Source: Patiria miniata
Lineage: Eukaryota
Length of the DNA stretch: 64,000 nt
Assembly (NCBI RefSeq): GCF_015706575.1
Contig: NW_024037060.1
Location: forward strand, 1,009,983-1,073,982
Reading direction: 5' to 3'
Part shown: positions 2,791-53,567 of the stretch, piece by piece
Position numbering within the stretch: the stretch's first letter is position 1
Layout of the letters: the number at the start of each line of letters is the position of its first letter
Notes under the pieces: model-generated
Seen by the model: only the letters and a program-made list of their open reading frames with translations
Database searches by the model: none
What the model was told of the DNA's origin: nothing
Made by a program: the position numbers and the translations under genes

Positions 2791-4667
2791 TAGGCAGGAA
2801 AGTCGAAAATACAGACGCACACTTTGACACATGCTTAGCTTTGGAGAGTCCCAGACGGTGTATAATCTGTGCTCGCTCGGTCCAATATTTGAATATAATT
2901 TTGTAAGTTTAGAAGAGAAATCGGTCCTCGGATAGGGCAATCATCACCCAATGAATAGTACATGGAAGCGCACATTATCAGAAACAGTGCATACTTTGGT
3001 GACAGCATTGTCTTGGTTCTCCAAGAAGAAAGCGAGGTAAAAGACAATACATACATTCATAAATCGTAAAACACATTTGCGTTTATACTCACGTAGTATT
3101 AGTATACCGGGCGTAAATGATTTTAATCATAAATGGCATAAAGCTAATAATAATTTACTAAATTTGTAAAGTTTTGATATTGTTTATCAATTTATAATAA
3201 CAAAAAATGGTTCCGGGTTATTTTGAACCGGGTACATGTGCTAGCAATGTAAATGCAGTGCCAGGGAAGTACCGAGCCTAGAGACAACTATATGCCATTA
3301 CAACGCTACATAATTATTTTAACCGATTGTGACCGCTTCTCATTAACCGACGCAAACCGCAGCAGCACAAACCGACAACGTTGTGCCCTACGATCACTGC
3401 GCAAATATCGTTTCAACTGGTGTGGGTCGTTATTCCCTTGAATTTCGGTTTCATCAAAAACATGTGCATGTATTGAGAAAATCAAATCAACAACGCACAC
3501 GCGACTCCTGCAGCACATGTGCATGCATGCGAATAAATAAAGCAAACTGTGGCGAGGCGTTGTGAACGAGATCCCGGTCCCCCTCCTAATTATCTATGCA
3601 TGAGCATGAGCAATATCACCAATGAGTCCGTATTTCATAAAACCTAAATTCATGCTGCACCGGCTGTGGCAGGGATGAACCGTGAGGTGAAGCAGAAGCG
3701 GTAAGGTAAAGGAGATTTAAGTTATCCTCTCGAGTTTGGACATAAAAGGTCGCCTGGTTTTTTTTGCCCCGCCCACCCTCCTCAGCAAGGTTGCTTGTTC
3801 GGACTCTGGTTTCTACGCTCGATTCTTTCTTCCCCATAGGCAGGGTGTGCATGGACTTATAAAAAGCCTATAGGGTCATTTGCTTTTCATGCATATTGGT
3901 TGTTTCCAATAATAAAACGGGTAACACCACTCAAATTCTGTTGAAGTTTCAGCTCAGTGGATATTACACTTTTCGAGAAAACAAAAACAATACACATGAT
4001 CGCGACACACGATTTCGTCAATAGCACTCTTTTTCAAAAGTCAGTTAATATTAACTGATCGTTGGGATTCACCTACAATAAATTTCACGGGGTGTACGGT
4101 ACTAGTCTAAAGTCCAAGACTTAGTAAGCTTGTCGATAATTAGTCGATATTTACTTTTCGGATAAATGCAAATGATATATGCCTTTAACAAACGACATTG
4201 GTAACATACGAGACATTTCGATGTACGGTACTTTATCACGGATAATTATGAGGGGGAAAGTGTGGCTAAAATAAACGGAAATAAGTTTTTATTGTGTTTG
4301 ATGTTTCCCCTTAAATTCTGTTTGTGTCATTACTGACCTCTTTGCGGCTGGTTTTGTATGAGAAAACAAAACTGTAGAAAGGACCAAAGGTGGGTAAAAT
4401 AAACGGAAATAAATTTGGATGTGTTTGATGTTTCCTCTTAAATTCCTTTCCTGTAATGTGACTTATTCCGTTTGTCATGTAACTCCCATCTTGGCTGCTT
4501 TTTTTTTTTTTTTAAGTATTATCGATACATGTGACATGCCTCCCCTCAACATTGAAGTGGCATCATCATCATTGAATTATGTCAACACATACGAGGAAAC
4601 CAAGTGAAAAGAAAATATATGTATGTGCCAACTTGCACAGTTGAGGATAGACCAACTTCATTATGTA

Positions 4668-4912
4668 CAGTGGCGTAGCCAGGGGGGGGGGGGGGGGGGG
4701 GGGGGGGCGACAGCCTCCCCCCCCCCCATGAAAACTTGTCGCCCCCAGTCGCCCCCCCCCCCCCCACTGAGATTTTGAGTTTCTAAAAAAAATATCATTG
4801 ATCTACATGACGCCCCCCCAGGATATGTTCTAGCCCCCCCCCCCCCCCCAGCGCCCCCCCCCCCAGCCCCCCCCCCCCCCCCCCTCATGACAAATTCCTG
4901 GCTACGCCACTG
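4668..4912. mobile_element. hAT-like MITE (TIR CAGTGGCGTAGCCAGG, 8-bp TSD ATTATGTA, poly-G/poly-C core); second copy at 7323-7562 inside duplicated unit
   Basis: cagtggcgtagccagg...cctggctacgccactg terminal inverted repeats flanked on both sides by attatgta; interior is G/C homopolymer runs. Confidence 0.75.
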
Positions 4913-4914
4913 AT

Positions 4915-5100
4915 TATGTATTACACATTAGGGATTAACGATTTATGCAAATTAGGCACCCTTCCCAAAAGAATTTCAGGTGTCACCCCTTCAAAATATC
5001 TTCCCTAAGGCTATAACAACATATTTGCTAAGTTTGGTGCTTTGGACCAGTTGGTCACGATCTTGTCAAATATTGGGTCTAAGCCACCTGACTATTAAAA
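4915..5100 (+). repeat. ~190-bp dispersed repeat, copy 3 (abuts MITE); copy 4 at 7562-7747
   Basis: see 1740-1870. Confidence 0.8.
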
Positions 5101-7322
5101 TGTATCCTTCTCAAACGTAGACCAAGTGAACAAAGTAGACCAAGTGAACAAAGATATAAATTGTCTCTACAGTGTGGTAACGGCGCTAAAAACCTTTTCA
5201 AATAAAAGAAAAATAATAATTAGGACAAAAAACGTACAAAATGAAAAGGAAAAACATCGTTCGCTTTTGAGTTTGGTTTACACATTTGGACAATTTGCCG
5301 GGTTTACCTTAGATCAGCCGTAGTACCATCGGAAAGGATGATAGATTATTTTCATTTTACAGGTGATTTGATGTAAGAAGGAAACCTGTCGCTTATAAAA
5401 ATCGTCATTTTTCGAGTAAACCCATTTTGAAACCTTCGTGCACAAATACACTGGTCCCAGTGCCCTCTAGGATCGTACTTAACTGCTTTTCAGGGGCGGG
5501 AACCAGTCAGTTGTAAATCGTTTCAGTTAAATGTATACATTTCCAACGCGTCGAAAGATTACAAACGGAGCGCCGCGGCGCGTGGCGTGTGGCTAGCCAT
5601 CCAGTGTTTACGGGCCAGATTCCAGGGTCTGTGTACACGTACGTGCACACTAACGTTACATTCAACGAAAAAAACGTATAACGTGAGACCTTACTTTTCT
5701 CATTGAAACGGTTTCCGACTAATTAAATTATATTTATACATCGCACTTCCCGTGGCATCCTTTACCATTTTTCAGTGAAGACAAGGGCAAGATTACCATA
5801 TGCGAAGTTCACTTATTTTCCTCTGTTTTGACTAACAAGCCCCCAGATAGCAATTTCATGTCATCAAAGTCAATTTCAGCAGTGAGAAAATACAAGCATT
5901 TTCTTAGAAAACACTTAGAATTTTTCAGTCCAATCTCATAGGGTTTGTACACAGGTTGTTGAGTGAACTTCGTATATGGAAATCTTTCCAAGACAAGTTT
6001 ACAATTACTCGGCAAAATTGAAAAATTATCCCCTAAACTGTCGCCTGTTTTGAATTTGTGACCCAATACTTTCGTATTACACGACACGGAAAAACAAAAA
6101 CAAAATGCATCAAATACTCTGTTTTTTGCGCTAAGGTTTGCAAAAGTGACTTTGATTGCCTTAAATTGCCTTAAACTGTGGCGAGGCGTTGTGAACGAGA
6201 TCCCGGTCCCCCTCCTAATTATCTATGCACGAGCATGGGCAATATCACCAATGAGTCCGTATTTCATAAAACCTAAATTCATGCTGCACCGGCTGTGGCA
6301 GGGATGAACCGTGAGGTGAAGCAGAAGCGGTAAGGTAAAGGAGATTTAAGTTATCCTCTCGAGTTTGGACATAAAAGGTCGCCTGGTTTTTTTTGCCCCG
6401 CCCACCCTCCTCAGCAAGGTTGCTTGTTCGGACTCTGGTTTCTACGCTCGATTCTTTCTTCCCCATAGGCAGGGTGTGCATGGACTTATAAAAAGCCTAT
6501 AGGGTCATTTGCTTTTCATGCATATTGGTTGTTTCCAATAATAAAACGGGTAACACCACTCAAATTCTGTTGAAGTTTCAGCTCAGTGGATAGTACACTT
6601 TTCGAGAAAACAAAAATAATACACATGATCGCGACACACGATTTCGTCAATAGCACTCTTTTTCAAAAGTCAGTTAATATTAACTGATCGTTGGGATTCA
6701 CCTACAATAAATTTCACGGGGTGTACGGTACTAATCAATAATCCAAGACTTAGTAAGCTTGTCGATAATTAGTCGATATTTACTTTTCGGATAAATGCAA
6801 ATGATATATGCCTTTAACAAACGACATTGGTAACATACGAGACATTTCGATGTACGGTACTTTATCACGGATAATTATGAGGGGGAAAAAAGACATTTGG
6901 AGAGTACCAAGTGTGGCTAAAATAAACGGAAATAAGTTTTTATTGTGTTTGATGTTTCCCCTTAAATTCTGTTTGTGTCATTACTGACCTCTTTGCGGCT
7001 GGTTTTGTATGAGAAAACAAAACTGTAGAAAGGACCAAAGGTGGGTAAAATAAACGGAAATAAATTTGGATGTGTTTGATGTTTCCTCTTAAATTCCTTT
7101 CCTGTAATGTGACTTATTCCGTTTGTCATGTAACTCCCATCTTGGCTGCTTTTTTTTTTTTTTTTTTTAAGTATTATCGATACATGTGACATGCCTCCCC
7201 TCAACATTGAAGTGGCATCATCATCATTGAATTATGTCAACACATACGAGGAAACCAAGTGAAAAGAAAATATCTGTATGTGCCAACTTGCACAGATGAG
7301 GATAGACCAACTTCATTATGTA

Positions 7323-7562
7323 CAGTGGCGTAGCCGGGGGGGGGGGCGTGGGGGCGACAGCCCCCCCCCCCCCCCCCATGAAAACTTGTCGCCCCCAGTC
7401 GCCCCCCCCCCCCCTCCCCCCCACCCAGATTTCGAGTTTCTAAAAAAAATATCATTGATCTACATGACGACCCCCAGGATATGTTCTAGCCCCCCCCCCC
7501 CAGCGGCCCCCCCCAGCCCCCCCCCCCCCCCCCCTCATGACAAATTCCTGGCTACGCCACTG
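7323..7562. mobile_element. hAT-like MITE, copy in tandem unit 2
   Basis: same TIRs and TSD as 4668-4912; homopolymer lengths differ. Confidence 0.75.
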
Positions 7563-9094
7563 ATTATGTATTACACATTAGGGATTAACGATTTATGCAA
7601 ATTAGGCACCCTTCCCAAAAGAATTTCAGGTGTCACCCCTTCAAAATATCTTCCCTAAGGCTATAACAACATATTTGCTAAGTTTGGTGCTTTGGACCAG
7701 CTGGTCACGATCTTGTCAAATATTGGGTCTAAGCCACCTGACTATTAAAATGTATCCTTCTCAAACGTAGACCAAGTGAACAAAGTAGACCAAGTGAACA
7801 AAGATATAAATTGTCTCTACAGTGTGGTAACGGCGCTAAAAACCTTTTCAAATAAAAGAAAAATAATAATTATGGACAAAAAACGTACAAAATGAAAAGG
7901 AAAAACATCATTCGCTTTTGAGTTTGGTTTACACATTTGGACAATTTGCCGGGTTTACCTTAGATCAGCCGTAGTACCATCGGAAAGGATGATAGATTAT
8001 TTTCATTTTACAGGTGATTTGATGTAAGAAGGAAACCTGTCGCTTATAAAAATCGTCATTTTCCATTTTGAAACCTTCGTGCACAAATACACTGGTCCCA
8101 GTGCCCTCTAGGATCGTACTTAACTGCATTTCAGGGGCGGGAACCAGTCAGTTGTAAATCGTTTCAGTTAAATGTATACATTTCCAACGCGTCGAAAGAT
8201 TACAAACGGAGCGCCGCGGCGCGTGGCGTGTGGCTAGCCATCCAGTGTTTACGGGCCAGATTCCAGGGTCTGTGTACACGTACGTGCACACTAACGTTAC
8301 ATTCAACGAAAAAAACGTATAACGTGAGACCTTACTTTTCTCATTGAAACGGTTTCCGACTTAAATAATATTTATACATCGCACTTCCCGTGGCATCCTT
8401 TACCATTTTTCAGTGAAGACAAGGGCAAGATTACCATATGCGAAGTTCACTAATTTTCCTCTGTTTTGACTAACAAGCCCCCAGATAGCAATTTCATGTC
8501 ATCAAAGTCAATTTCAGCAGTGAGAAAATACAAGCATTTTCTTAGAAAACACTTAGAATTTTTCAGTCCAATCTCATAGGGTTTGTACACAGGTTGTTGA
8601 GTGAACTTCGTATATGGAAATCTTTCCAAGAAAAGTTTACAATTACTCGGCAAAATTGAAAAATTGTCCCCTAAACTGTCGCCTGTTTTGAATTTGTGAC
8701 CCAATACTTTCGTACTACACGACACGGAAAAACAAAAACAAATTGCATCAAATACTCTGTTTTTTTGCGCTAAGGTTTGCAAATGTGACTTTGATTGCCT
8801 TAAATTCTTGTCCACGTGGAAAGAAAAAATTATCAAAGTTTGTTTTGTTTGCACCCTCATTTATAAAAAATCAAACTCCGCCCACAAAATGGGCAAGATC
8901 CAGGATGGGTCCCGATCTTAAAATGATTTCTAGCCCATTTTGACCCCACCTGCCAAGGTTCATGCTTTTACCACAAAGTGCACGATTTTGGCCAAAAATG
9001 GACCTAAGCAGCTCCACTATATAACTTAACGTGAAGAGGTTCGCGCGCGCATGCGCATATGACATAAGTCACTATCAGCCACAGCGAAATTGAA

Positions 9095-18600: not shown

Positions 18601-21600
18601 GTATTTGGCACAGCCCTATTTGTCGTACATCCTCCGCTCAGTACGTGCAGGAATCAGCATGCATGATCCCCTTCTCCCCCCCCCCCCATTAAATTCTTGT
18701 GAAGGGTCACAAAGTGGCATCTACTGTCCATAAACGTCTTAAAAGTAAATCCCCTCCTCCCTCATCTTTATGAAGGCAAATACAACAAGACCAAGAAGCC
18801 CAAGAAGAAGAAGATCGACCGTAAGAAAAAGAAGAGCCAAAGCAAGGAGGAGGATCACCAAGACGACAAGGACGAGGACGACAGCGAGGGTGATGACGAT
18901 GAACATTATAAGATGGCATGTCATCTTCCTCTTCATCATGAACATGATGAAGAGGAAGATGACGCGGAGAAGATAGAACCAGAGCCAGTGGAGGAGGACC
19001 ACTATCAGGACGAGCATGGATTCTGCGACAGTTACACCCTCAAGCAGCTTATCAGGAAACTCCACGTTATGGAGCCTGTGGAGAGCGTCATGTGCCTTGT
19101 TGGCAAGAAGTAAGTGAGATATTGTTGTTCGGTGTATCTGCTTTTACATCACGTCCATTATGGCCTAGGGTTGATTTCATGACATTTATTGTAACTTGTG
19201 AACCAACATAGAGTATAGTTAAGGATCCAAAATTGGAATATTCTGTATATTCAGCACAGCCCTAATAGTCCCTGAATATGTGACCTACTGAGGCAAAATG
19301 AGGAATGTCCCCCAAAACTTTGTTTTGAGCAATCAACGCCTGAAGTCGGATATACTAGAAAAATCATGTGAAAAATCGTTTTTGATTGTTTTGTATTTTT
19401 GTGTTTTGTATTTTTGAGTAGCCAAGGTATCCAAGATTCACACTATGCATTTTTGTTGGGAAAAAATAACCCAAAAAGTGGAAAGAATAAAGAACATTTC
19501 TCACTGCCGTTGGCTGCGCAATGCATGACTTTTTTTTCAAAGCCGTTTTTCACAAAATGAGGTTAGAGAAACTTGGCAGGACACTGTTGAAGTTCCTGCG
19601 TCATATCTTTGGAATAAATTAAGCTATATAGCAATAAATTTGGTATCATTGGAAAGCCAATGATTTGCGCTTTAACATGATGTATATAAAACGTGAAAAG
19701 TCAAAGGTGAGGGTTATTCCTCATTATGCTATGGCAGGTCACATATTGCAAAATCCACCACAAACATTTGGCATATCTTATTCTCCAGGTACCCTGACAG
19801 TCTGGAGGCTTTCTACAAGACTCGCCTACCGGGGACCTGGGACCCAGACCGTGCAGGCAAGCGCATGAAACTGCCTACCCCAGAGACTTGGGAGACCCAA
19901 GTGTCACTGAAGGGAAACAAGGCCTCTACATGGGAGGACTTAATAGGTGGGTCAGAGGTCACATCTTCATTACATATATGTGAAGTTATCAGTAAACCTT
20001 GGTTAAAGACATATAGGATCATTAGCTTTTCATGCATGTTGTTCGTTTCCAATAATAACACCACTTATACCTGTTGAAGTTTGAGCTCAGTGGGTATTAA
20101 TTTTCTTGGGAAAACAGTGAAAACCTTGCAAAACCTTTAGATCACGAAACGCTATTTCTTTGGTAGCTCTCTTTATTAAACAAAATCAGTCAATTGACTA
20201 GCCATTGGAATTCACCTACATTTCTTCGAAATGACAGCAAGCCAGACAATTAATTTCACCAGGCCAAGTAAGCTTTTTTGAAAATAGTTTGGTAGATTAC
20301 TTTTGTGCAAGTGATCCTATGCCTTTATGGGAACCTCTGATTAATGATTAATGTAGTTTGTGCCTTACGTCAGCATTTCCAAATATCATTTCCTTAAAGA
20401 CTCGATACTTTTATTTTTATTGCAGACCACAAGAAACTGCCCTTCATGGCCATGTTGAGAAACCTACGTAACATGCTACAGGCGGGGGTCGGGCCAAAAT
20501 ACCATGCTTCCATCCTCCGCAGGCTCACCGATGAAAAGTCTGTCATCAACAGCAGGCAGTTCCCTGTCCGATTCTTCTCTGCTTACGACGTGCTGGATAC
20601 TATGCAGCTCAATCTGGAAATGCAGGAAAAACTAGGTTGATTTATTTTCTTTGTCAGTACAGCAATGAAGGATTTGTCATCTGCACTTGATACAATGATG
20701 GCGTTTTCCATTTTTGGGCTTCCAAACTTGCTTTGAAGTGATCAGGACATTTGCCTCAATGTTGCAATTTGGTCCATCGTAGGTCCTAATTAGTCCTCCA
20801 GTTTGAAGTCAAGTCACAGTCTATTCTAGTGAACTGTGACTCGGACATTCCTTTGTTATGGTTCATCATCTGTTAATACTTGTAAAAGAACTTGTGAGTT
20901 ACTTTTGACCAGACTTGTGACGGAGTTGTACCGGACTCGACTTCAATTCTCTTGCCTCGACGCAGCAGTTGATTTTGGCCAGGTTCGGCCAGACTATAAT
21001 CTTGGACACCATGTAATAGTCATCTAGACTGATGTAAAGCTCCATTTTGTGCTGTTTTTAGAAATGTTTAAATATGGTGCTGAATCATTGTACCATTTGC
21101 CATCAGTGAAATTGTGCACAGAAACAAATACCAACAAGTACCAACATCCTTTTTTTCCTTTTTTTTTTTTAGATTGTTAAAATTTGTTGTTGCATTTCTT
21201 TATTGTTGCATTTTTTCCCTACAGCTTCAGGTGAGATCCAACCTGAGGAGGATGACTTGGGCTATGGACGAGGTCGTGGGCGAGGTCGTGGGCGCGGCCG
21301 TGGGCGTGGTCGCGGGCGAGGTCGCGGGCGTGGTGCTGGCGGGCGTGGTGGCAGAGGTCGGGGTCAATGGGGAAACCGAAATGTTGGAAAACCAACGTGA
21401 GTAACCTGATTTACGTTAAAATCTAAGAATCTGTTAACTGAATCCAGATGTCATCCATTAGGAATCAAAATAAAAACGTGATTGTGTTCAACACAAATGC
21501 CAGAAAAATCATTGTCGTTACAAGTCACTGAATTGTGTGTAGTCAAGTCAAATCATTCTAAGGCAGCAACTCAAATTGAGTGAGTCATGTATTTTTAAGG

Positions 21601-24600
21601 GCTTCATGTTGATGAGCCTTTGATTCTAGTCTGTTGTTTACCGTGACTTGGGCTGTCATGTCTCAAGTTGAGTTGAGTTACCAACAAAAACACGACTCAA
21701 GTCAGAATTGAGTGAATTGAGTGACTCGAGGCTTTACAAGTTTGGCTATAATAAAAACATGTTTTTTCAATGTTATGAAAATAAGATTTTTAACAATTTG
21801 TCCCTTTCTGATTAGGGGTTAGAGTAATGCGCAATGTCAAGTATACATGTGTGTAATAAGTGATTTGAAAAACTCGCCGTGTCTATCGACCGTACAGAAA
21901 AACTCAATCATACAACCGTTTCATGACTAACTGTTTGTTTGTTTTTAAATATAGAGAGCTCAAGTACACCAAGGAGTTACTGGTTCGTTACCGCAAGGCA
22001 CTGGACACTGCCGTCAAGATAGCCACACGTCACAACATCAAACCCATCCGGGGTAAAACCTACTTACTCTGTGACATCGGGCCCAAGATGGATATGTATA
22101 CTGGTGGATCTGGAATGGACAAGGTACAGTGTGGTTCGCCTGTGGATGTTTGAAAACTCAGTCAGCCATGGATTCCTCATGACCTTTGAAACGGGGTAAA
22201 AAAGACCCCCCCCCCCCCGGTCAGTTGTGACGACATTTGAGTAGAGTGCCATGGCCTCGTGGTCTGCAGCATTGAATTATATTTCCATATTGTAGAGGGA
22301 TCGCGCATTCTTGACAAAAAAAATGTTAATACAAGACCTGACATGTAGGAGATAACGCGAGTGCATGTAGGGCGTGCAGCCTTCGAAATATGCGCCCAGT
22401 ACGCTCTGAATAGGGTCATTCTATAAATTTGGGGTCCAAAGTGTGACATTTATCCCGTCCCTGTTACCTTGGTACTTTGTAATTTGCCATTCAAGCATCA
22501 TTAAAAGTGACTTCAAATGACTGTTTATTTGTTGGGTAGGTAGTTTGCTATTCATAATCACTCTTGGAGGATGACTGCATTAAAGAGTGCATCAGAATTA
22601 TACAATCATAGATGTCAGATGTAACAGGGACGGGAAAAAAAGTGAACCCCAAATTTAAAGAATGACGCAATAGTCAATCAGCATCGGTTTCGTATTCTGC
22701 ACAGCCAGGGGTTAGTGAAGGAACATACAAACAGCCCATGTAGTTGAGTTTGCTCCTGATGAGTAGCACAAACAATTTGCTCTGCGATATTTTCTTCTCA
22801 AGAGCTTTGGTTACTTCTTGTTTTTCTCCTAGACTAGAGAGAACGGCCTCCTGCTGGGTCTTATGTGTAAACACTCTTGCGAGGAGTGCATCTTGGTCAG
22901 CTATGGGGTCAACGACCAGAAGGTCATTGAACTGGAGAAGGGAACGCTCCTGGACAATGTCAAAAGCATCGTTGAATATGCAAAGGTAATTCAAGACAAA
23001 TAAACACAATATGTGACCGGATTCCACGAAATAGGAGTAATACATTGTTCAAATTGAGTGCCTGTGGCTGCAAATTGTAAAGATGGCGATACAGTTTTCA
23101 TTTTCATTTTTTCGTTTCTTTACAATATACAGGTATATATAGGTAGGTAGGAATATAATTCATGTACACATGCATTCCGGGCCCCTTCCTCCAATAGGAA
23201 TACCAAAATGCATGTGCGCCTCGTCTTTAAGAACGCATGAAGCATGCGCGTGAGCGTCACACCACCGCAGTAAAAGCTTCTATGATGAGATTTGAAGGTT
23301 TGCATGGTGGAAAGATACTAAGACAAGATAAGTTTGCGGTAGCACCATGTGAATAAATCTCTTTTGTGAGTATGTGTGGTTCTGAAAAGAACCGGAGGGA
23401 CTCAACGTTTCGAACAGTATGCTCTGCCCATCGTCAGGAGAATGAGGGATTCCAACGATGATGCGATGATCAGCATTCCAACATCGCATCATTGTTGGAA
23501 TCCCTCATTCTCCTGACGACAGGCAGAGCATACTGTTCGAAACGTTGAGTCCCTCCGGTTCTTTTCAGAACCTCACATACTCAGGAAAGAGATTTATTCA
23601 CATGGTGCTACCGCAAACTTATCTTGTCTTAAAAGCTTCTAATTCTGGTCGCTGGATTCCTCTATACATGTATGTGTAAATCAGACTTGATTGTAAAAAA
23701 ATCGGGAAACTTGCTTAACTCAAACTCCGAATACCTAAAAAATTGTATCCATTCCCTTGAGATTTGACTTGACGAGAGTTTACTGTACTTGTGACTGGAC
23801 TCATGATTGACTTGTTGATGAATTTGACAACAATCAGTAATGCATTAAGCATTGAGTTTTACTTCACAGGCTGCTGATGGTGACATGGAGGACCACTGGA
23901 ATGCCCCGCCCAGCAAGTTAAACATGACCACCTTGTACGAGGCGCTGCGCGACCGCGTCCACATCGACAACCTGATCATTGTCGGGCAGGACTACACGGA
24001 GGACGGGACGGGCTGGAATGAGATGGAGGACTTTGTGGCCAAGTACCGTCAGCTGGTCAACCCCAACCTGATGTATGTCCAGATTGATCTGACCTCCTCT
24101 TATTCCTGGTAAGATTGTCTCTATATTTGCTCTACTATTTTGGTTTCAGACTGGATTTTGGTTTGTTCCCGAAACGCAGCACATATGTTCCCATCGTACT
24201 ATGTCAAAGATCCATGTGACCGCCCGGTTTACTCATGGTCAGCCACCATTGCAGTGTGCCAGCATTTGGTTAGCAACTACGTCGTGTGTTGTGAACCAGA
24301 CAGTAGGGCTTATTTTCACTTAAATATGCTAATACTTAACCAAATGGCAATATGGTCACTACGTGTGCCCTTGAAGGTTTTCATAATCATTTAGTACTCA
24401 ACCCAATAAATGCTTAGCACACTTCACAGGTGTGCCTTAACTTGAGTATATCGCACATGAGGTACGCTCACAATTCCTTCGGTTCGTAGAAGCCGAGTTA
24501 CGAGGCGGATGGAACCAAAAAGTCTCTAAAAGAACCAAAGAGTCAGTGGTTGAGCAGGAAGAAGACCACATGGGCCTTATCACAAATACTCAGACAATTT

Positions 24601-27600
24601 TCACATTGGCGAGTTTGGCCAAAAAGTATTGTTTGAAGGGAAAGGTCACAAAAAAGACACATCATTCGTATTGATCCTAAAAGTATCCTACCAAATCATT
24701 GGGTGCACCACGAACTAACGTATCGTCTGTGGACTTTGTGCACACGATACGTCACTTTGTGGTGTGACTGACGAAATTGTTATAAAAAATCGCTTTCTTG
24801 GATTAAAATCATACTGGCAATAAACACCGCATGAATTATTCCATCTGACTTGCTGTCGTTTAGGAGAAATCAAGAAGTGTAGGTGATATCCAACAAGTCA
24901 GACAATTGACTGACTTAATGTTGAGTACCGTTGACAAAATCGTGTTTTGTGATCAAAAAGTTGTGCATGATTTTTCACTTTTTTCTTGCAAAATGTAATA
25001 TCCACTGATCTGAAACTTTAGCAGGTTCTTCTTTGGATTTTGAAAAGTGATATTATTGGAAATAATTGGAAAAGAAAAGAAAGCCAAAGAAAGCAACTGA
25101 TCTGATATGCCTTTAAACTATATTTGTGATTTTTTTTAGACTTTTTTTTTTAAACCCTGAAGGAAGGAAAAGCCAGCTAAAAAGCCCAGCCACCCAAATG
25201 ACATCAGTGTGACTGGTTACAGCGATAACATCCTGCGATTCATAGCTGAGCGAGGCGACAGCGGCCAACTGAATCACGTGGAGAACATTGACAAGGCCTA
25301 TGGTCTCCGAGAACTTCAGGTATGTTCTTACTTTACATTGACACATATTGAAGTTTTCCATTAAAATGAAGCAATTTCTTTGTTATTCATAAGATGGAGT
25401 TGTTGGATTTTGTTATTCATAAAATGGAATTGTTGGATTTCTTTGTTGTTTCTGAAGTGGAGATTGTACAAACTAACATGATAACTTTTTTGAAACCACT
25501 ACTTTTTTCGGTCGTACATTATTTTTAGTCTGGTTCCCTGACTGATTCCCTGACTTGCTGCTGAAACTTTTGAATGTCCTTGATGTTGACTGATTCGTCC
25601 CCCCCCCCCACACACCCTCCTACACCCCCCTCCTACACCCCCCTCCCTACACCCCCCCCCAAAAAAAAAAAATTAATAAATATATCAATAAATAAAATAA
25701 AACAAATACATACAATTAAAAAAGATTTCCTTTTGCTACAACCTTGTCCAGTTCCGTCTGATTTTGCAAGAACCTGTCATGAATGAAAAAAAAATTGCAC
25801 AATAAATCTACAATCTTGTAAAACTTTAGGCAAGCTAGTGAAATGGTAAGAGATATTTGAGCACAGGGTTTAGCTGAAGTACTCAAGAAACACAGACCCT
25901 TTCACTAGGTTAAAAGACATAGGGTTTAAAGTCTGATTTCTAGATTCTGTCACTCAACGGTGTTTTTTTTCCGTTTGTGTTGTTATTCTACTCAGGTTGC
26001 AGCAATTGGACGTACTGATTCCAACCAAGCATCTGCTGCCACCAGTCCAGAGACCCCACTGCCCATTGCTGCCCCTGTACACAGGTCAGAAAATCTAAGA
26101 ACTCTCTGAGCGATCCCTGTTTGCTATTTCCCAAGTTTGCGACATTGCTTATATTGCTAGCATCATGACTTTAGGGCGTGATCCCTGACTGGTTATGGTG
26201 GCTTTTCAGCGTTTATTCAGTGTGAAAGTTGTCCCTGTATAATCAGTATCCTAGTTGCTTTCTTGCAACCACCTCTTGAGTTCCCTGCAACCTTGTTAAA
26301 GAGAAAATATTTCTCATGGAATTTTGGAAAACTCAGCAAATTTTGTTTTTATGATGTGTAGGGAACCCTTCAAACAATGCACATTGACCGATATAGGTCA
26401 CCACTTTTGTTCATGGTAGGCATGTCAATTTCGTGCGTTAGCACTATGAGAAATGCTCACACGCCAAAGTTGGGCAGGGCATGTAGCCAATCCAGAATGG
26501 CCCAGTGTGTGGTGTTACATGCTATTAAAAAAGATTACAGGGTAAACCAGCCCAAAATCCTGCTTGACGGTGATTCTTTTGTTTGCTTGTTAGATGGCGG
26601 ACGGCTCGCGTGTTCATCTCCTCCACGTTCCGTGACATGCACGGCGAGCGTGACCTGCTGACCCGCTTTGTCTTCCCTGAGTTGCGGGCTCGGGCCAAGA
26701 AGCTCTTCCTCAATGTGTATGAGGTGGATCTGAGATGGGGCGTGACTGAAGAGGAGACGAGGCAAAACAGGTAGGTGGGCCTAAAATGGAAGTATCTGTG
26801 TTCTGCACAGATCGCTTCAGGTTGCTAGTAACTTACAGTTGACTAGAGACCTGGGCTTGATTTTATGGAACTCCATGCATAGATAGCACATTGTTCTTCG
26901 TTACCACCAATAGACCTTTATCATGCTGCCACCATTTCAGTCATGTTTTTTGTATCCAATAACAGTACTGAAGGATAATGTTTTTGTGCAAAAAGGAGCC
27001 AGACTATTTTTCCTTCCAGCCTCGCTTTGGTTACATTGATGGAGACATGGCTGCCTTATGATAATGGTCTATGGGGAAGACAGAGTGCTTGGGCACGCAC
27101 ATGACACATGTCGGCAGGAAGTACGCACACCTGAGTTTATAATTCCAAATGAGTGACAATGATTCAAGAATTGTCATTCCTTTACACCACTAGATAATGG
27201 CAAATTGTGTCAAACTTCTCTTACTTACAGATCGCTGGAGATTTGCCTGACAGAGGTGTCTCGCTGCAACTACTTCATCGGAATCTTGGGGAAGCGTTAC
27301 GGCTTCTGCCCAGAGGCCTACACGGCGCCGGCCACGGAGGAGTTTGATTGGCTGCAGGACTACCCGGCCGGGCGTTCCATCACTGAGCTTGAGATGCAGC
27401 ACGCGGCGCTGTGCGACCCGCAGATGGCTGTGGGAAGGGCGTTCTTCTACTTCAGAAACAGTGATTTTATGGCGTAAGTCATAACTGAAGGTTACTTCCT
27501 GTGCCTCCCAAAAGCACAGCACTGTGTGATATTATTGGTTCATCAAGGAATTAATACAGTGTAACACATTTTTGTGAAAGTACTAATGGGCAAAGTTGAC

Positions 27601-30600
27601 CAAAAAAATTTCGACTCCAGAAAATTCGGATGATTTAACATACAGTGTGCTAGGAATTTGCCTTGAAGAGAACATTTTTCAATGTCAAAGTCGACATTCT
27701 GCATATATGGTCTTAACATCAGTCTCAATGTTTCACGTGGTACCATGCAAACCAAAATGCAGTTCATTTAGAAACCTCTGTTATTATCAAAAAATGATCC
27801 CCCAGGAAAAACATAAAAATCATGAATCGTTTTTCCTTTGTACAAAATAGATACCATTTGAGAAAGTATGCAAAAGAACATTGATATTTTCCCAAGAGAC
27901 ACTACTGGTACCGGTTTTCATATTACCAAGTCTCTCTTCTTAAAAAAAAATTGTTTATCAAAAGTATTTAACACTTTTGCCACCAAATTCTTGGAGTTTA
28001 TAGTTGGAAAGTGGAACTAGTACTTTTATGTCCTTTTTTTGAAAGCCCTGATCACCATCTTCTTTAAGTTTGAGTGACATGATTCAAAGAATTGAACAGA
28101 AACGTCAAGTTACCTTGATTGTTCCCTACAAATCAAGTATTGGTTGACAAGCTAAAACAGACCATGTAGTATCTGGCAAGCTACGTTTTATCTGTGTTTT
28201 TTATTGGTTTGGTGTTTGTCCTTCATTTTTCAGTGAGGTTCCCTCTTCCTGCCAGTCAGCATTCCAAGCTGAGTCAAACGCAGCATCAGAGAAGATAGAG
28301 AATCTCAAGCAGCGAGTGCGATGCAGCGGGCTGGAGGTCTTTGATGGGTAAGATGTCTTCAATTTGTTTTTACAAATGGAACTTCCTTGGCTCCCCCCAA
28401 AAATTATTTTTGTTTCAAAAAGCCAAGGAAAAAATAACATTGGCTTCATTTTCTGTGACTTGCCAAACTGGTTGTCAAATTTTGGTCTACAGTTGTAGAC
28501 TTTTTTACAAATTCAATTTGGATGTAGAAAGCTGTGGTAAACTTGTTTATGTATTTGACATTCTCAAACTCTAGAATTTTGTTTGGATCATTTAAACATC
28601 ACAAACTTGAGTGTGAAGCATTTTTATGATGTATCTTCTTGCAGCAGTTCTGTTGCCAACTTGACATTAGATATTGATAAAACGAATAATAACCTCAAAC
28701 TTTTTTTGAATATTTTTCTCTCATAAATTAGTTTTTTTCCAGCAAATGTCTAAATAAGCTAACAATCACATATGTTGGGAAAGTGGACAAGCCTTCACAG
28801 TAATTCTTCCTGCTAAGATATTCATAAATACCTCATAAAGACTGTCTGCTCCATTACAACATGTATCCCCATATCTCTCTCTTTCCAGATATCCGTGCCG
28901 GTTTGGTGGGGTCGTGGACCACAAACCCGTTACCACCAACTTGGAAGAGATGGGTATGCGCGTCGTCAACAACTTGTGGAACTCATTCGTCAAACATTTT
29001 CCTGAAGAGGTAAACAAGGCCAAACTTTTGTAGAAATATTTCCAATTAAAGAAAACTGCTGATTGTAGCTGATGTTTTCTTTCACTTGTAAATGCCCAAA
29101 CAAAGGCCAAGAACTACTGAAGGTGAGGGTTACAAATTAAAATTAAAAAAAAGAGCAAATAGGAGTCAAAGTGACAGGATATCCTTTCAGATTGCTTAAG
29201 AATTAGCCAGTTTGGTATCTCTATGAAGTAGTCCAGGTCAAAGGTCATTCGGGCTAAAATAGCTTACGGAATGTTACATGTTACGTTATTTTACACAAAT
29301 GCCCGCTCTGGTTGTAATTAACATGCGAGCGTCTTGTGCCCATCTCCCTGCGCCGTCTCTCTGTGCGTTCATGCGCATGGCATATCCTCAAACTTCTCCC
29401 AAATTATACTCACCATATCTTTGTCTTTGAATCATCCAGGAAGCCTTCTTGGACGAGCTGTCACACGAGGGAGCCCTCCATCAGGCCTTCCTGGAGGCCC
29501 ACGTCGCCGGCTTCAGCGGCCGTAAGACCCAGCTGCGGCAGTGCCTGGACCTGATGGACGCCTGCCACAAAGGGCTGATGGTCATCTGCGGAAAGAGCGG
29601 CTGTGGAAAGACTGCCCTCACAGTAAGGAAAAAGAAGAAAGAATAAATGAAGACATTGCAAAAATGCCATTTACCCATTAGCACATGAACTACATTGTAT
29701 GACATTGTATGACATTGTATGACATTGTACTACATTGTATGACATTGTATGACATTGTATGACATTGTATGACATTGTATGACATTGTATGACATTGTAT
29801 GACATTGTACGACATTGTATGACATTGTACGACATTGTATGACATTGTATGACATTGTACTACATTGTATGACATTGTATGACATTGTACTAGATTGTAT
29901 GACATTGTATTACATTGTATTACATTGTATGACATTGTATGACATTGTATTACATTGTATTACATTGCATTACATTGTATTTATTCCCTGATGAATCCAT
30001 AAAACCATACAGTGCTGGGGCGGTTTGGGGCAGTACAGAGAGTAACAGGCTGGATGTTGGGGACAATTCATTTTTTTCAACCAAAGATAGGAATTCACAT
30101 TTGATTTGATGAGTATTTAACAAAACTTTCACGAGCTGTTTAAATGTTTAGCCAACACTAAACAAAGGCTGGCACCAGTTACTGTGCAGTTCCACATAAG
30201 TCGTAAATGTATTCTAATTTCTTGTTGAAGTTTGAAAACACTACCTCCATTGTTTTCCCTTGTGAGTTAGTTTATGATTTATTCCCTTGATGCATATTTG
30301 TTATTTTTTTGTTTTCTTTTCATGTTTTTCCTCCCAGTCCTGCCTGGCCCAGCGCTACAAGAACAAGATATTGGAGTCTGACGGTAACCACGTCTTGGTT
30401 CACTTTGTGGGTGCAGCGGTGGGATCCAGCAACGTCCTGGCCGTGCTGCGACGCCTGTGCCTGGAGCTCAAGAAGCGATTTGCTCTCACTCTCACCATAC
30501 CAGAAGACTTCAAGTGAGTGCTGTGCTCTTTCTGGTATCGTGTTCTAAATTTCAGTGCAAGTAATTCTTGCAAAATTATCCAGCGAAGGTGGTGTTCTCT

Positions 30601-33600
30601 CTCTAAACATAGCCAAGATTCTTTTTGTTAACTCCACAACCTGCATATTGTTCTCCAAACAAACCTGGTGTCATTATTGTTCTAATTACAGCAAACTGGT
30701 GACCAAGTTCCCTGAGTTCCTGAAGGGTGCTGCAGTGCATTGTGGGAGTTCCCCGTTGGTGATATTTCTGGACGGGCTTGATCAGATGGAGGAGGCGTAT
30801 CAGGCCAACAACATGGAATGGCTGCCAAAGGATATCCCAAAGGTAGAATTCATTTTCCTTAGCTGAAACTTCCAACTTTTTTAAAGTTGCACTCTCCATG
30901 TTCTTCAACTAATTTATTTTTTTTACCGAATACATTTTCAACTTGTTTGTTTTGTTCCAACAAAAAAAAAAAATCCTTTTTTTTCTTTCTTGGACATCTG
31001 CAACCCTCTGGTGTTTTGGGCTCAAACAGATCCACTTTGCCAGCAGACTGGTCCGTACATTATCAGTTCTGATCACACATCACTGAATTATTCTCCCAAA
31101 CCCACGGCCAGACTGCATCGTAGAAATACAAGTTCCATTACAGATGACACGTTCAGAGGATTAGTTCAGGCGTTGTATAAAGCAAATAATAATAAAAAAA
31201 AAAAGGTTTCATATTAGTGTGATAGAAGAAAATTAATTTCATTCGGAGACTGAAATTACTCTTACCATTGCACTAATAAACATTCATTATCTGTATAATG
31301 TACCAGCTTATATTTCAGCATAAGACACAGAATAGGCTCAACTACAAACGTGGTAAAAACGTACGATTTTGTTGTTGCTTCCCCCACCAGGATGTGATGT
31401 TTGTGGTCAGCACCGTCGTGGACAGTCAATCCCACAAGGCACTGCTTCGCCGTAACCCCTCAACTCTGACCCTTGGCCCACTTGACCTGCTGGACAAGGC
31501 CACCGTGGTGAGACGCATGCTGGCCGTCCACCGTAAGACACTGGATGAGTCCCCGTTCAACAACCAGGCAAGAACATGACTTTTTTTTATTGAGAGAGAA
31601 GAAAATGCCTATAGTGTCCCTGGAATTCAGTGTCAAATTAGGCTTTACCCTTCACCGACGTATAAACACTGTATACTCAGTGTGTTACCTCCCGAATGAA
31701 AGTTGGACAAAATCACTCGTGTGGGACTCGAACCCACGACCTCCTGCTTTCTAGTGCAGATGTCTTACCACTCGACTACCGAGCTAACAGGATCGGTTGG
31801 CTGGTTCGAATCTGATGTACATAGCAGCGGGTACTATTAACTATTCATAAGATGGAATTCAATTATCACATTTATTTCAGGGTTCCCACAGCCATGGAAA
31901 ATCCTGAAAAATGCTGTTATTTCAAACTATCATTGAAGCTCACGGAAAAGTTATGGAATTTTGTTAATTTACAAGGAGTCCTGGACAGTTGATACTCCAA
32001 GAAAAAAGCCAAGGAATTCTGTAGAACCCGTATCTGATGATGTGTAATAAATGGCTGTGGCAGTCTTCCAATTTGCATTCTGGTTTACTACACTCCCTCT
32101 CTAGATGCAAATATCATGTAAAATCTAAACAAATAAATAAACATACTTATATTTATAGTTGAAGCATTGAGGGTAATTTTAATTATTACATGTAGAATAG
32201 AGTATAGCGCTGTTAAAGTCAGCAGAGCCTACAGACAACACACAAAGACAGACTAAGAATACTTGGCAAAATTCATCATTTGAACTTTTTGATTCACTCT
32301 TTGCAGATGAAGTTACTGGTTGCCAAGAGAGAAGCCAACTTACCATTGTTCCTCACTCTGGCCTGCGAAGAACTGCGTGTCTTTGGAGTCTTTGAGCAGG
32401 TAATTGAAGATAAATCACTCAAAAAAGAAAATTGGAAAAGTACTCTGTGTTCCTTAATACAACTAAGGTCTTACAGGTTAATGCCAATCAATCACATCCA
32501 GTTTCAGCTCATGTAACAAGCTGTTGAATTGTCGTAGTCATTGCTCCCCCTTGTTACTTGTAGCTGACTTGAGATTTGACCTTTCATTTTACTTATGATT
32601 TGACTTTTGACTCAATATTTGTTTCATGACTGACTTGTGATTGATTTGTGATTGACTTGTGATTGACTTGTGATTTGTGATTGACTTGTGATTGACTTGT
32701 GATTTGACCTGTGATTTGACCTGTGATTTGACCTGTGATTTGACTTGTGATTGGCTTGTGATTTGACTTGTGATTGACTTGTGATTTGACTTGTGATTTG
32801 ACTTGTGATTGACTTGTGATTTGACTTCTGATTGACCTTGTCATTTGACTTGCGATTGACCTGTGATATAACTTGTAATTAAACATCAGGTAGGTCTTGT
32901 GATTGAATTTGTGATATGACTTGTGGTTAAAGTTGTTAACGAACTTGTGATTTGACTTGTTGTTTCACTTGTGATTGGACATGTGATTGATTTGTGATTT
33001 GACTGATGATTGACCAGGTATCTGAGAGGCTGAAGCGGATGTCTCACACCATCAGCGCCTTGCTGCAGGAGGTCATGCAGAGGCTGGAGATGGATCATGG
33101 CAAGGAGTTACTGGCTACAGCCCTGGCATTGCTGGTGTGTGCAAGAGACGGTAAGTAGGCATTGGTATAAATCTTATCAGTTTTTAAACTAAGAATAAGG
33201 TTTATATTTATAACTCTAAAAGGGCAATTCATTTTTCAGATCATTGCCGCTCATTATGAACTTGTGATTTGGCTTGAGATTGACTTGTGATTGACTTGTA
33301 AAGTTGTGATTTGACTTGTGATTTTACATGGTTATTTCGGGGAAGAAGGGCAAAATTAGTGATTTATTTGTGTTGACTCATTTGACTACCTCCATTCACT
33401 TCGCCTCATGAGGTCGTCAAATCAGTCAACTTTTCACGCTTCTTACTTTCTTCCAACCGTAACATGATGTTGCTTCATCACGGATTTATCCAGGTCTCCT
33501 TGAGGATGAGCTGCACAGTCTCCTGAGTCTTCACACCCTTCTGGGAGGCAGCAAGTATCGTCTTGAAGACATCAAGAACGTCCGTCTGACCGCTGAGCAC

Positions 33601-48890: not shown

Positions 48891-50404
48891 ATTAAAGAAG
48901 ATATATAGTGTGTCATGCTTAAAACTTTATTGATGATTTGAAACTTTGAGATTTATGTTCACATAGTAGGTAGGCAACAGTGCCAACGTTTAATTATTGA
49001 GGTATTAAATGGAAAAAAAAATATTGCAAATACTTACTGAGTTTAAAGATAACTCTAAAAGTATCAAATGTTCTGAGTGTGTATCTTGTACCGCATGCTA
49101 TAAGTTTCATGGAAACAAAAATATTCAAGTTTGTATTATTAAGTAGATTATGATATTTTTTTTCTTCAAAATTTGCTTTCCCGAAAGAAAAGAAGTAGTA
49201 TTCTGGGTTTGTTTGGAATAGATTGAAAAATGAGTTTATCTAAAACTGTTGGTAAAGCAAAGAATGTTGGCAATTTTTGAGTCTAATATTTATTGCCAAA
49301 ATGTTCAAACAGCTAACTGTGTACAATGTGAAAATTTATTAAGATCATTTTATCATACACTGTGTAACAAATGCAAGGAATTTCTAATGTAAAAAAGTTT
49401 AGGTAAGAAAGCGCACATTACTTTGTCATAATGCAATGTCAATCAGTTATCTTGGGAATAATGTACAAGATTCCAATATTTTTTGGAGTTTGGGTTTGTT
49501 TCAAGGTTTGTTGTCACAAAATTTTTAATTTTTTTTATTTGATTGGATATAATAGCTAGAATTAAAGAAAAGTGTATTTCAGAGCAGAGAAAATGTGTTT
49601 GGAGTTGAGCGTTTTATACCGCTCCACAAGGTTAATAAATATTACAAATTCTACCAAGATACCTAGATAAAGAACCGTGTTGAATGTAATTTTATCGAGA
49701 TTGTAAGAAAGCACTAACAATTGAGAAATCACTGATCATGTGTTTGGGAATAATGAGTAAACTCGGATTCTCGGTATATTTTAAGAATAGTTAGGTCGTT
49801 GAACAGAATAAGAACCAACCCAAATACGTGATATAATATGTCTTCTGTATGTTAAATACGGTCTCTTTCCTTTTTCTGAATTTCATATTTTTGTGAGGTT
49901 TGTCACAATAGTGTATTAACCCGTTAAGTATTATCATTGTCTGAATAAAAATATTGGAGGGAAGAAACGAAACGCATTTTCAATAAGGTGGTCGTGGGAA
50001 ATATTTTTGTATAATCTTTGTATAATTCTGGCATATTACTTTATAGCTTGTATTTTAGTCTGAAATATTACTTATGAAGTGTAGATGGATATAAGAGATC
50101 GCTATAACAATTTTATTCAAAAGAAACTACTTTTATTTCACTCTGTTGTCTCAGATGATCGCAATGTTGTTGCAATTCTATTAATAAAAAATTGATTAAG
50201 AGCCACTTTTGTCCGAGGTAGCTATTCATTTAGATTTGAGATTTCCTGTCTTGTTGGCAAAAACGTTGAAGTTTTCGAATGTTGTTGAGTGAACACATTT
50301 AAAGTTTCAGCCCTGCGTGTTATTAAATTAAAACAATGAATGCAGTTTACCTTATAAAAAGGTTTATAAATATCAATTATGTTTTAAATTCTATCTTTGG
50401 ATTG

Positions 50405-50595
50405 ATTGTGGGGCTGTTCCCAGCTACAGTGCTATACTGGGTCAACCCATGGTCAGGGAAGCAAGCTTCGCCAAGACCCGGTTACAAAAATCGCGTGAAT
50501 AACATCGCAGCTGCGCTGTGGCAACTGCCGTCAGATGTTAAGCTGACGAGAACAGATACTCTCACATGATCTTAGCCAGGAGACCGAGAAGCGAT
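50405..50595 (-). ncRNA. U2: U2 snRNA-like gene, copy A (in ~1.4 kb tandem unit)
   Basis: minus-strand read ATCGCTTCTCGGTCTCCTGGCTAAGATCATGTGAGAGTATCTGTTCTCGTCAGCTTAACATCTGA..GAGATTTTTGTAACC (Sm site); TATA box ctatataaagg ~30 bp upstream (+strand 50625-50635). Confidence 0.75.
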
Positions 50596-51819: not shown

Positions 51820-52008
51820 TGTGGGCTGTTCCCAGCTACAGTGCTATACTGGGTCAACCCATGGTCAGGGAAGCAAGCTTCGCCAAGACCCGGTTACAAA
51901 AATCTCGTGAATAACATCGCAGCTGCGCTGTGGCAACTGCCGTCAGATGTTAAGCTGACGAGAACAGATACTCTCACATGATCTTAGCCAGGAAGGCCGA
52001 GAAGCGAT
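51820..52008 (-). ncRNA. U2: U2 snRNA-like gene, copy B (second tandem unit)
   Basis: minus-strand read ATCGCTTCTCGGCCTTCCTGGCTAAGATCATGTGAGAGTATCTGTTCTCGTCAGC..; TATA ctatataaagg upstream (+strand ~52035-52045); flanks ~90% identical to copy A. Confidence 0.75.
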
Positions 52009-53378
52009 GCCCTAAAATGAGTTCTGCTCCCCTTTATATAGGGACAGACGAGACAAAACGTCTGGTAAACGTAAGCACGCACCGCGACGTTGAGTCAACG
52101 ATTGTTCGTATAGTGACGTCATTGTGCGCTTCAGAAACATTTTGTTTGTGGGCGTCACCATCCCGTAATCCTCTGACGTATGACGCGGGTGACAGAATAC
52201 GTAATGAGGATGCAAGCTTCGCTGATGCAACATAACACACTACCAAACGATTGTTCTGTTGATGTATGAAATAATTCAAGTTACTTCCGACTTATTATAT
52301 TCCGAAAGTGACTTTCGACAGCACCCCAATTTTGTGTATTACATGTATATGCGCACCTCAGTAAATGATACATTACAAGCGTAAACAACTGAAGCAAAGT
52401 TGACTCATCATCATCTTGGCTTGTCTTTTGGAAACGTCGCCTATAAGTCGAAAACTTTGCCTGTCGTCAGCAAGTATTCCTGCCTCCGTCACGGTCTCAT
52501 TCCCAATCTTTGGGCATGTTCCCATCTCCATGTTGGGCTCCGGTCAGTCTTCGCTTTCATTTTAGCCTTGCCTCCAAGATATGTCTCTCTTATAGTAGTC
52601 ATAGCGCTTCAAAATTAATGACCAATATTCTGGAGTTCAATTTGATGGTATATTCAACACCCAGTCAGGTTTAAGTTCTTTATTAGCAGTGTGTCCTCAC
52701 GTCTTCGATGGTATTCCGATCATCTATGTACAGCAATTCATTTCAAAAGTTCTGATTTTTGTTGGTCATTTTCTGCTTGTTGTAATTTAGAGATCCAACT
52801 CCAACTTATCTAGATAGTCAAAGTTCAACCAACCTGTCTGTAGCCATCCTGTCCGGTTAATAATAAACAGTGAATAATTATACAGCTTGTAACAAATGTG
52901 GTTTCGGGTCACTTCTGACATTTCCACTATCTGCTCACTAACTCACATTGTCACAACGGCAACGACGAAAAGATCTACTTTTTGTGATTTTTTTAAATTT
53001 ACTTTTTGAGTGTAATTATCGCATAATTCGGCACAAGGTAATATTATCTTCAATTATTCCCAAATTAAAGCCAAAGAAAATTAAAGGTTGAAAATTGAAT
53101 ATGCGTCTGTTTGATCTCAATATGTTGAAGAAATGTCATGGCAAAAAAAAAAAATTAAACTGAATGTTGGTGATAAATGTCCGTTGAAAATTATGAAATG
53201 CGTTTCGTTAAAAAAAAATTCAAGGTAGTTTGCACTTACGGTACAATGGGTCATCGCATCCGACGCGTGCTCGTTGCGTCAGCTTAAAACGTTCAACCCA
53301 CGTCTGTATCTGTATCGTTGACAAAACGTTTAGGTCCCAAAATTCTCTATAAAAGATCGAGCAGAACCGTTCCATAGC

Positions 53379-53567
53379 ATCGCTTCTCGGCCTTCGTGGC
53401 TAAGATCATGTGAGAGTATCTGTTCTCGTCAGCTTAACATCTGACGGTAGTTGCCACAGCGCAGCTGCGATGTTATTCACGAGATTTTTGTAACCGGGTC
53501 TTGGCGAAGCTTGCTTCCCTGACCATGGGTTGACCCAGTATAGCACTGTAGCTGGGAACAGCCCCAC
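53379..53567 (+). ncRNA. U2: U2 snRNA-like gene, copy C (inverted relative to A/B)
   Basis: ATCGCTTCTCGGCCTTCGTGGCTAAGATCATGTGAGAGTATCTGTTCTCGTCAGCTTAACATCTGACGG..CACGAGATTTTTGTAACCGGG; TATA ctctataaaag at 53345-53355; shared 3' flank AATCAATCCAAAGATAGAA (3'-box candidate). Confidence 0.75.

Follow-up and report, generated by a model that had tools for sequence, protein, structure and literature searches.

Among the closest described counterparts of the sequence considered here are the RGG or glycine- and arginine-rich (GAR) boxes of nucleolin, fibrillarin, FMRP and the heterogeneous nuclear ribonucleoproteins (hnRNPs), and the C-terminal tails of SmD1, SmD3 and LSm4. Protein arginine methyltransferases (PRMTs) usually act on GAR motifs such as RGRG and RGGRGG that lie in disordered regions (PMC10212539), and in their methylated form these motifs are read by Tudor domains (PMC10212539, PMC3281842). 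The Sm tails belong to small-RNA ribonucleoproteins and are free C-terminal extensions of the Sm fold, with proven methylation by PRMT5 and roles connected to SMN and the Cajal body (PMC5909452). An uninterrupted Gly-Arg (GR) tract of similar length was found in exon 8 (21225-21396, plus strand) of a TEP1 gene, which lies in a stretch of 64,000 nucleotides from Patiria miniata (contig NW_024037060.1, positions 1,009,983 to 1,073,982). This whole stretch is called the window in the following, and positions are counted from its first letter.

To our knowledge, TEP1 is poorly understood, and work on it has been almost wholly mammalian. The association of mammalian TEP1 with vaults and its binding of vault and telomerase RNAs are known, and vault RNA forms a ribonucleoprotein with TEP1 and requires it for stability, the p80-homology (TROVE) region being sufficient for RNA association (PMC12547018 and works cited there). 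Activity as a TIR-like NADase, on a STAND/NACHT scaffold, was lately demonstrated for TEP1 (bioRxiv 10.64898/2026.05.01.722283). In the literature searched, no paper was found that ties TEP1 to RGG motifs or arginine methylation. Mammalian TEP1 is without a box of Arg-Gly (RG) dipeptides, while many invertebrate and some protist TEP1 proteins have one.

Compared with the described systems, the (GR)11 core of exon 8 is close to the (GR)9 tail of SmD1, which is also its best sequence match in the PDB (phmmer E = 1.2e-6). However, the tract of the window is an analogue rather than a member of the Sm tails, as it has the TROVE domain on one side and the vWA domain on the other and is not attached to an Sm domain. 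With the RGG/GAR boxes it shares the Arg/Gly-rich composition, the position beside a folded RNA-binding module, the canonical PRMT substrate motif (PMC10212539) and probably the disorder, but it is almost pure RG, with one RGG triplet and no aromatic spacers except for one Tyr and one Trp at the edges. Where an RG/GAR motif is defined by at least three closely spaced RG or RGG, 14 RG were counted here within 40 residues, 11 of them consecutive. The RG box is a fairly ordinary representative of a widespread type of motif, although the motif has not been discussed for this protein. The third comparison is with Ro60 (TROVE2) and bacterial Rsr, whose fold the TROVE and vWA module of the TEP1 family has according to the model of a homologue (TM score 0.6-0.7), whereas the long basic linker characterizes the TEP1/p80 branch. 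By sequence, no link from the window protein to Ro60 chains was obtained with phmmer at E <= 0.01; only two entries with a TROVE domain, 9KOP and 9L5Y, the latter a Thermus phage Ro60, matched weakly (E = 1.1e-4).

The reading preferred here, with a probability of roughly 0.6, is that exon 8 is an ancient exon encoding a disordered, polycationic RG linker, which was recently lengthened and serves as an RNA-holding arm and as a substrate of arginine methylation. The features on which it is based are the following, all on the plus strand.

20426-20635, plus strand: TEP1 exon 7, encoding the last conserved TROVE helices with LEMQEKL and ending in phase 1 at CTAG/gttgat.
21204-21224, plus strand: polypyrimidine tract and AG acceptor of exon 8 (attttttccctacag), with a pyrimidine fraction of 0.8 over 20 bases, among the best of 10 exons scored.
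21225-21396, plus strand: TEP1 exon 8 of 172 nt, with an intron of phase 1 before it and one of phase 2 behind it, encoding the linker from TROVE to vWA.
21227-21265, plus strand: acidic lead-in of exon 8, with an SGE start as in amphioxus ESGEPLQ and sea urchin LASGIRPP.
21266-21334, plus strand: uninterrupted (GR)11G run with a 12-nt periodicity of the DNA (GGG CGN GGT CGN).
21335-21364, plus strand: degenerate RG/RGG tail of 10 residues with 3 further RG, read codon by codon.
21365-21396, plus strand: non-repeat tail of exon 8, in which a Trp follows the basic tract, as it does in molluscs (EWWLKKK, ENWWLDRKKK).
21397-21402, plus strand: donor GTGAGT of exon 8, matching 8 of 9 consensus positions.
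21955-22123, plus strand: TEP1 exon 9, whose first base completes the split codon; it encodes a helix and the first vWA strand (TROVE profile positions 412-442, then DUF5920).

The gene is a TEP1 orthologue by its domain content and coverage. Exons 1-12 of the plus strand join with GT-AG sites in an unbroken frame, which starts at the ATG at 14903 and runs through exon 8. In the assembled protein, the Pfam family TROVE (PF05731) matches residues 229-601 (E = 1.2e-100), with profile positions 13-367 before exon 8 and 412-442 just after it. The gap from 367 to 412 falls on exon 8, which therefore encodes a poorly conserved stretch inside the Pfam envelope. TROVE is followed by the vWA-like DUF5920 (PF19334; E = 2.6e-12 and 1.6e-13), by DUF4062 (PF13271, TIR-like NADase; E = 2.9e-9) in the exon at 27205-27477, and, towards the C-terminus, by beta-propellers in exons at 36.9-39.5 kb, namely WD40 and two families specific to TEP1 (PF25047, PF25048). 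For the NACHT/STAND ATPase, Pfam found nothing in translations of single exons at 30.3-31.6 kb. However, full-length TEP1 orthologues covered 16.7-48.9 kb continuously in tblastn, and the identity of the gene to the TEP1 of sea urchin, amphioxus and scallop is nearly the same (48-50%). An earlier note on this DNA had placed the exon in the TROVE region of TEP1, and the exon assembly, the Pfam domains, the tblastn coverage and the position in the TROVE envelope all agree with this. More precisely, exon 8 encodes the linker between the Ro60-like helical-repeat ring of TROVE and the vWA domain. The first vWA strand in exon 9 (22030-22060) reads LLCDIGPKM, and protist homologues retain the metal-binding DxSxS (CDVSGSM); the metal site of the vWA domain thus appears degenerate in the TEP1 of the window.

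The 172-nt segment is directly preceded by attttttccctacag and directly followed by gtgagt. In its translation, the two leading bases complete a split codon, and the (GR)11 core is part of a total of 14 RG dipeptides. The peptide given in the earlier note, described as an about 14-fold Gly-Arg repeat, is an exact substring of this translation. Only 3 of 45 residues of the core belong to the set A, V, I, L, M, F, W and C, and a Pfam search with exon 8 alone returned only noise (Keratin head, E = 0.46). At the DNA level, Tandem Repeats Finder reported a 12-nt unit TGGGCGAGGTCG, repeated 5.8 times at 21265-21334 with 86% matches and a score of 91. The pattern (GGNCGN)4 occurs in the 64-kb window only at the RG exon, with 8 overlapping matches at 21266-21330, and was never found in 100 dinucleotide-preserving shuffles. 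Since the Gly codons of the unit GGG CGN GGT CGN, which encodes two GR pairs, alternate strictly between GGG and GGT, the duplicated unit is 12 nt (GRGR) and not 6 nt, so that the hexamer proposed earlier has to be replaced. Repeat-length polymorphism is plausible from this periodicity. Within the (GR)11G run, all seven departures from the 12-nt consensus are at third positions and synonymous, leaving its 23 codons without any non-synonymous change. In the whole RG tract, 13 of the 14 Arg codons are CGN and one is AGA.

The exon is not the insertion that the earlier note had described, because the positions and phases of its flanking introns match those in amphioxus and Patella vulgata. The amphioxus exon (L002, 9897-10059; 163 nt) starts after the first base of the codon that directly precedes SGE and stops after the second base of the codon lying two residues before LKY. 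In Patella vulgata, an exon of 202 nt (L003, 19985-20186) has the same phases and positions as exon 8 of the window, and the donor of exon 7 has its equivalents in both species at the same position and phase. The three exon lengths are all 1 mod 3, and all three exons encode RG boxes. The RefSeq model XP_078576926 of amphioxus contains the RG exon, while the older amphioxus protein model C3Z4J5 is without it. In the annotation of Branchiostoma floridae GCA_000003815.2, TEP1 is divided into three gene models, with a break inside the RG exon (end at 9978, start at 10001). It seems that gene predictors easily lose low-complexity RG exons, which is a lesson for annotation.

Amphioxus and Patella encode Arg by CGN as well as AGR codons, in DNA without periodicity, which argues for an old RG character that is maintained there through the protein sequence. 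For the window, the periodic DNA and the almost exclusive use of CGN for Arg indicate that an old box has recently expanded. Both the exon and its RG composition would predate the split of the amphioxus, mollusc and window lineages. Vertebrates, sea urchin and crinoid would have exchanged RG for a Lys/Arg-rich sequence, and in the window lineage the box would have been lengthened lately by tandem duplication of the 12-nt GRGR unit. Additionally, Patella has RG tracts in two different TROVE loops. The second one (L003, 15582-15641) is equivalent to a low-complexity loop encoded in exon 5 of the window (18776-19109), which follows KYNK and is Lys-rich, with a subsequent long Asp/Glu-rich run.

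For the comparison across the family, full-length TEP1 representatives were recovered by an exhaustive search with the translation of exon 7, and the linkers were delimited in 158 homologues by anchoring on motifs of exons 7 and 9. No RG was found in 100 of these linkers and three or more in 16. RG-rich linkers are those of Branchiostoma (XP_078576926; 10 RG), Solemya velum (9) and Mizuhopecten yessoensis (7), and among protists Gocevia and Cyanophora have 3 RG each; three further eukaryote homologues have 8-13. RG-poor linkers belong to Lytechinus (LASGIRPPQPRGKRARKED...), Anneissia, Mya and Priapulus; those of the sea urchin and the crinoid are K/R-rich and about as long as the linker of the window. 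In the alignment, the RG boxes are in register, and their common non-repeat flanks are the SGE start and the Trp after the basic tract. The linkers of amphioxus XP_078576926, Mizuhopecten XP_021378535, Solemya KAL5022413 and the Patella vulgata locus share with that of the window the RG-rich basic core, the aligning flanks and the site between SRQFPFRFFSAY and YRKALDTAV. In contrast to these, which are mixtures of RG and RGG with diversified codons, the window has the longest uninterrupted run observed, (GR)11, with 14 RG against 6-10 in the named species, and is the only one with a clear 12-nt periodicity of the DNA.

The vertebrate linkers, including mammal-like ones, are located at the same site, are net basic and are of similar length (82-88 residues in the sampled vertebrates, 85 in the window). 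However, they are K/R-rich with hydrophobic residues (e.g., ...RKRLRAALGVPFIY...) and contain only 0-2 RG, as found for lizard, characiform fish, paddlefish, lungfish, lamprey and caecilian; therefore, they are not GAR motifs. They may be partly structured. The earlier statement that the human region has no RG repeat thus holds for the sampled vertebrates, the human protein being outside the sample. Comparison of orthologues, which the earlier note had proposed, gave a divided picture, with the RG tract present in amphioxus, several molluscs and some protists and absent from vertebrates, sea urchin and crinoid. Judged from these sequences, the RG box looks old and lost in vertebrates, and it is simplest to assume that an RG-type linker of ancient origin was replaced by K/R-rich sequence in several lineages including vertebrates. 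Independent gains in different lineages are compatible with this sampling as well.

What these linkers have in common was analyzed by charge. In the densest 20-residue stretch of the linkers of 154 homologues, the median is 8 Lys or Arg (net charge +7) compared to 4 in controls, which were segments of the same length from the same proteins. At least 8 basic residues per 20 were found in 60% of the linkers and in 7% of the controls. In the linker of the window, 10 of 20 residues are basic, all of them Arg; across the homologues, Lys dominates in 110 and Arg in 40. What is conserved in the family is thus the dense cationic patch, which the linkers nearly always carry and for which RG is one recurrent solution.

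The structural context was derived from an AlphaFold model of a complete homologue (P0110), based on an alignment of 49 sequences, with a predicted local distance difference test (pLDDT) score of 83.8 and a predicted template modelling (pTM) score of 0.82. Residues 324-379, from the last helix of the ring to the helix before the first vWA strand, have no secondary structure, and the only internal part of the linker with a pLDDT below 50 is 336-356, a coil which coincides with the RG stretch RGLKRGRGGLRGGRRGSRRVR. The model matches Ro60 and the Ro60-RNA complexes 1YVP, 2I91 and 9NEP over both domains (TM score 0.6-0.7). The product of exon 8 is quite probably a disordered basic linker.

In the proposed function, the RG box would be an unstructured polycationic arm adjoining the RNA-binding ring, which would add non-specific contacts to the RNA backbone and thereby aid the capture or retention of a small RNA ligand such as vault RNA. 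From the site beside the Ro60-like ring and the conserved basic patch, a direct RNA contact is conceivable, although the odds are slightly below even. As a canonical GAR sequence, the box would furthermore be a substrate for PRMTs, and methylation could tune RNA binding or recruit Tudor-domain readers. Judged by the motif preference of the PRMTs, the chance that its arginines are methylated is about even. Together with the basic patch of the whole family, the RG motif offers a testable handle on how the RNA ligand of TEP1 is held and possibly regulated. A further-reaching idea, which is at present a long shot, is that the RG box is an ancestral regulatory element, whose methylation state gates the loading of vault RNA onto the TROVE ring and, via RNA-dependent clustering, the oligomerisation-dependent TIR-like NADase, and that vertebrates lost this switch on replacing RG by a Lys/Arg-rich linker. 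If so, invertebrates with long RG boxes would be natural systems for the RNA control of an NADase.

Several points weigh against the RNA-holding, methylated linker. The homologue from which the disorder of the linker was predicted is a distant one. The RG box is absent from Lytechinus, Anneissia, Mya, all sampled vertebrates and most protist homologues. It is therefore dispensable in evolution, which fits a generic need for charge better than an RG-specific role. In addition, two word-indexed searches with the flanks, in which the RG exon was left out against bias, yielded only fragments of up to about 634 residues, none of them more than about 80% identical, and hence no sequence derived from complementary DNA (cDNA) of the same species. 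The synonymous-only pattern of the perfect run is also of restricted value. The run was selected as uninterrupted, which biases the count, and the antisense Pro-Arg frame likewise puts every variable site at third positions, so that the pattern cannot pick the strand. As this pattern is symmetric and affected by the choice of the run, it is the cross-species evidence that carries weight. The antisense (PR)n frame itself was rejected as a gene, being a stop-bounded stretch of 33 codons without an ATG.

The main rival is neutral drift of a low-complexity linker, which would need only flexibility and positive charge and would owe its repeat to slippage of the 12-nt unit, with no function specific to RG. 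The 12-nt periodicity with alternating GGG and GGT, which points to recent duplication of the unit, speaks for such drift, as do the dominance of Lys in most homologue linkers, the range of linker lengths from about 10 to 163 residues, and the many close lineages without RG (sea urchin, crinoid, Mya). Against it, members of three animal phyla as well as protists carry RG boxes at this very site, written in diversified codons, Patella has them in two TROVE loops, and the 23 codons of the perfect run are free of non-synonymous change despite seven changed third positions. Drift is regarded as a serious but rather unlikely explanation.

A docking role similar to that of the SmD1 tail is clearly less probable. 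Here the (GR)n tract would mainly serve contacts between proteins, with symmetric dimethylation by PRMT5 and recognition by SMN or other Tudor proteins, or would act in nuclear or nucleolar targeting, and would thus direct the assembly or localisation of the TEP1 ribonucleoprotein without touching RNA. The SmD1 tail is the closest sequence match among solved structures, methylated GAR motifs do have Tudor readers (PMC10212539, PMC3281842), and the GR repeats of SmB, SmD1 and SmD3 are Cajal-body targeting signals, whose replacement by alanine spares the association with small nuclear RNA (PMC5909452). However, the tract of the window is enclosed by two folded domains and offers no free C-terminal tail, and many orthologues have a Lys-rich replacement, which is incapable of arginine methylation.

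It is very improbable that exon 8 is no exon, i.e., a GC-rich intronic microsatellite with a chance AG and GT, with the true linker exon elsewhere or the gene defective. The point in favor of this explanation is the weak donor of exon 7, with 5 of 9 consensus positions. As exon 7 stops after the first base of a codon and exon 9 contributes the last base of the split codon, an exon of 1 mod 3 is required between them. When exon 7 is joined straight to exon 9, a stop follows after about 30 codons, and the reading frame breaks without the segment, as the earlier note had implied in calling the 172-nt length necessary for the frame of exons 9 and 10. In the interval from exon 7 to exon 9 (20.6-21.95 kb), 46 segments bounded by AG and GT are compatible with the frame, and all of them were enumerated and scored for splicing. 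The best scores belong to 21225-21396, the only comparable candidate being the same exon from a tandem acceptor. The GC content of this segment is 66% compared to 35-38% in the flanking introns. Apart from exon 8 and its truncations, none of the 46 is basic, resembles the linkers of the orthologues or has comparable splice sites, and these alternative exons were rejected. The non-repeat flanks of the tract, with the SGE start and the Trp, are open and homologous to those of the orthologues, and the introns agree in position and phase with amphioxus and Patella. Accordingly, 21225-21396 is, on sequence evidence, very probably a real and orthologous coding exon, and the best reading is that of a constitutive exon of invertebrate TEP1. 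The tandem acceptor lies 6 nt downstream (ccctacag/CTTCAG/GTGAG; 21231), and its use drops Ala-Ser and keeps the frame. Homology (ASG in sea urchin, SGE in amphioxus) favors the first acceptor at 21225.

Least probable of all is a regulated cassette, by which skipping would yield a frameshifted transcript for nonsense-mediated decay and so control the amount of TEP1: the 1 mod 3 length would bring the stop about 30 codons later and repetitive exons can be poorly defined in splicing, but the splice sites of exon 8 are strong, and the conserved phases of the flanking introns are enough to explain the conserved length class.

Further repeats were observed inside the TEP1 gene. A tandem duplication of 105 nt at 41519-41716 with 96% identity extends over the 3′ end of a WD40 exon and the GT donor behind it (gtaagt) and therefore creates two equivalent donor sites. 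Three intronic minisatellites are located at 29692-29980 (ACATTGTATG, 29 copies), at 32631-33011 (a 12/35-nt array with 32 or 11 copies) and at 41739-42200 (nested arrays of 11, 85 and 177 nt).

Upstream of TEP1, a tandem duplication of about 2.64 kb covers 3544-8660, with the copies 3544-6022 and 6173-8660 being 93-100% identical and containing identical open reading frames (ORFs) of 78 residues. Downstream of the gene, an element of about 200 nt is present in three copies (50382-50581, 51823-52010 and 53377-53593) with 98-99% identity, two of them direct and one inverted, and looks like a transposon or a miniature inverted-repeat transposable element (MITE). On the minus strand, two hydrophobic, transmembrane-looking ORFs at 55990-56283 and 60633-60929, neither of whose translations has a Pfam match, suggest exons of a membrane-transporter gene downstream of TEP1. 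Finally, an intron between WD40 exons contains at 37600-38210 a GC-rich low-complexity region with long spurious ORFs on both strands (GVGVG... and PTPTPT...).

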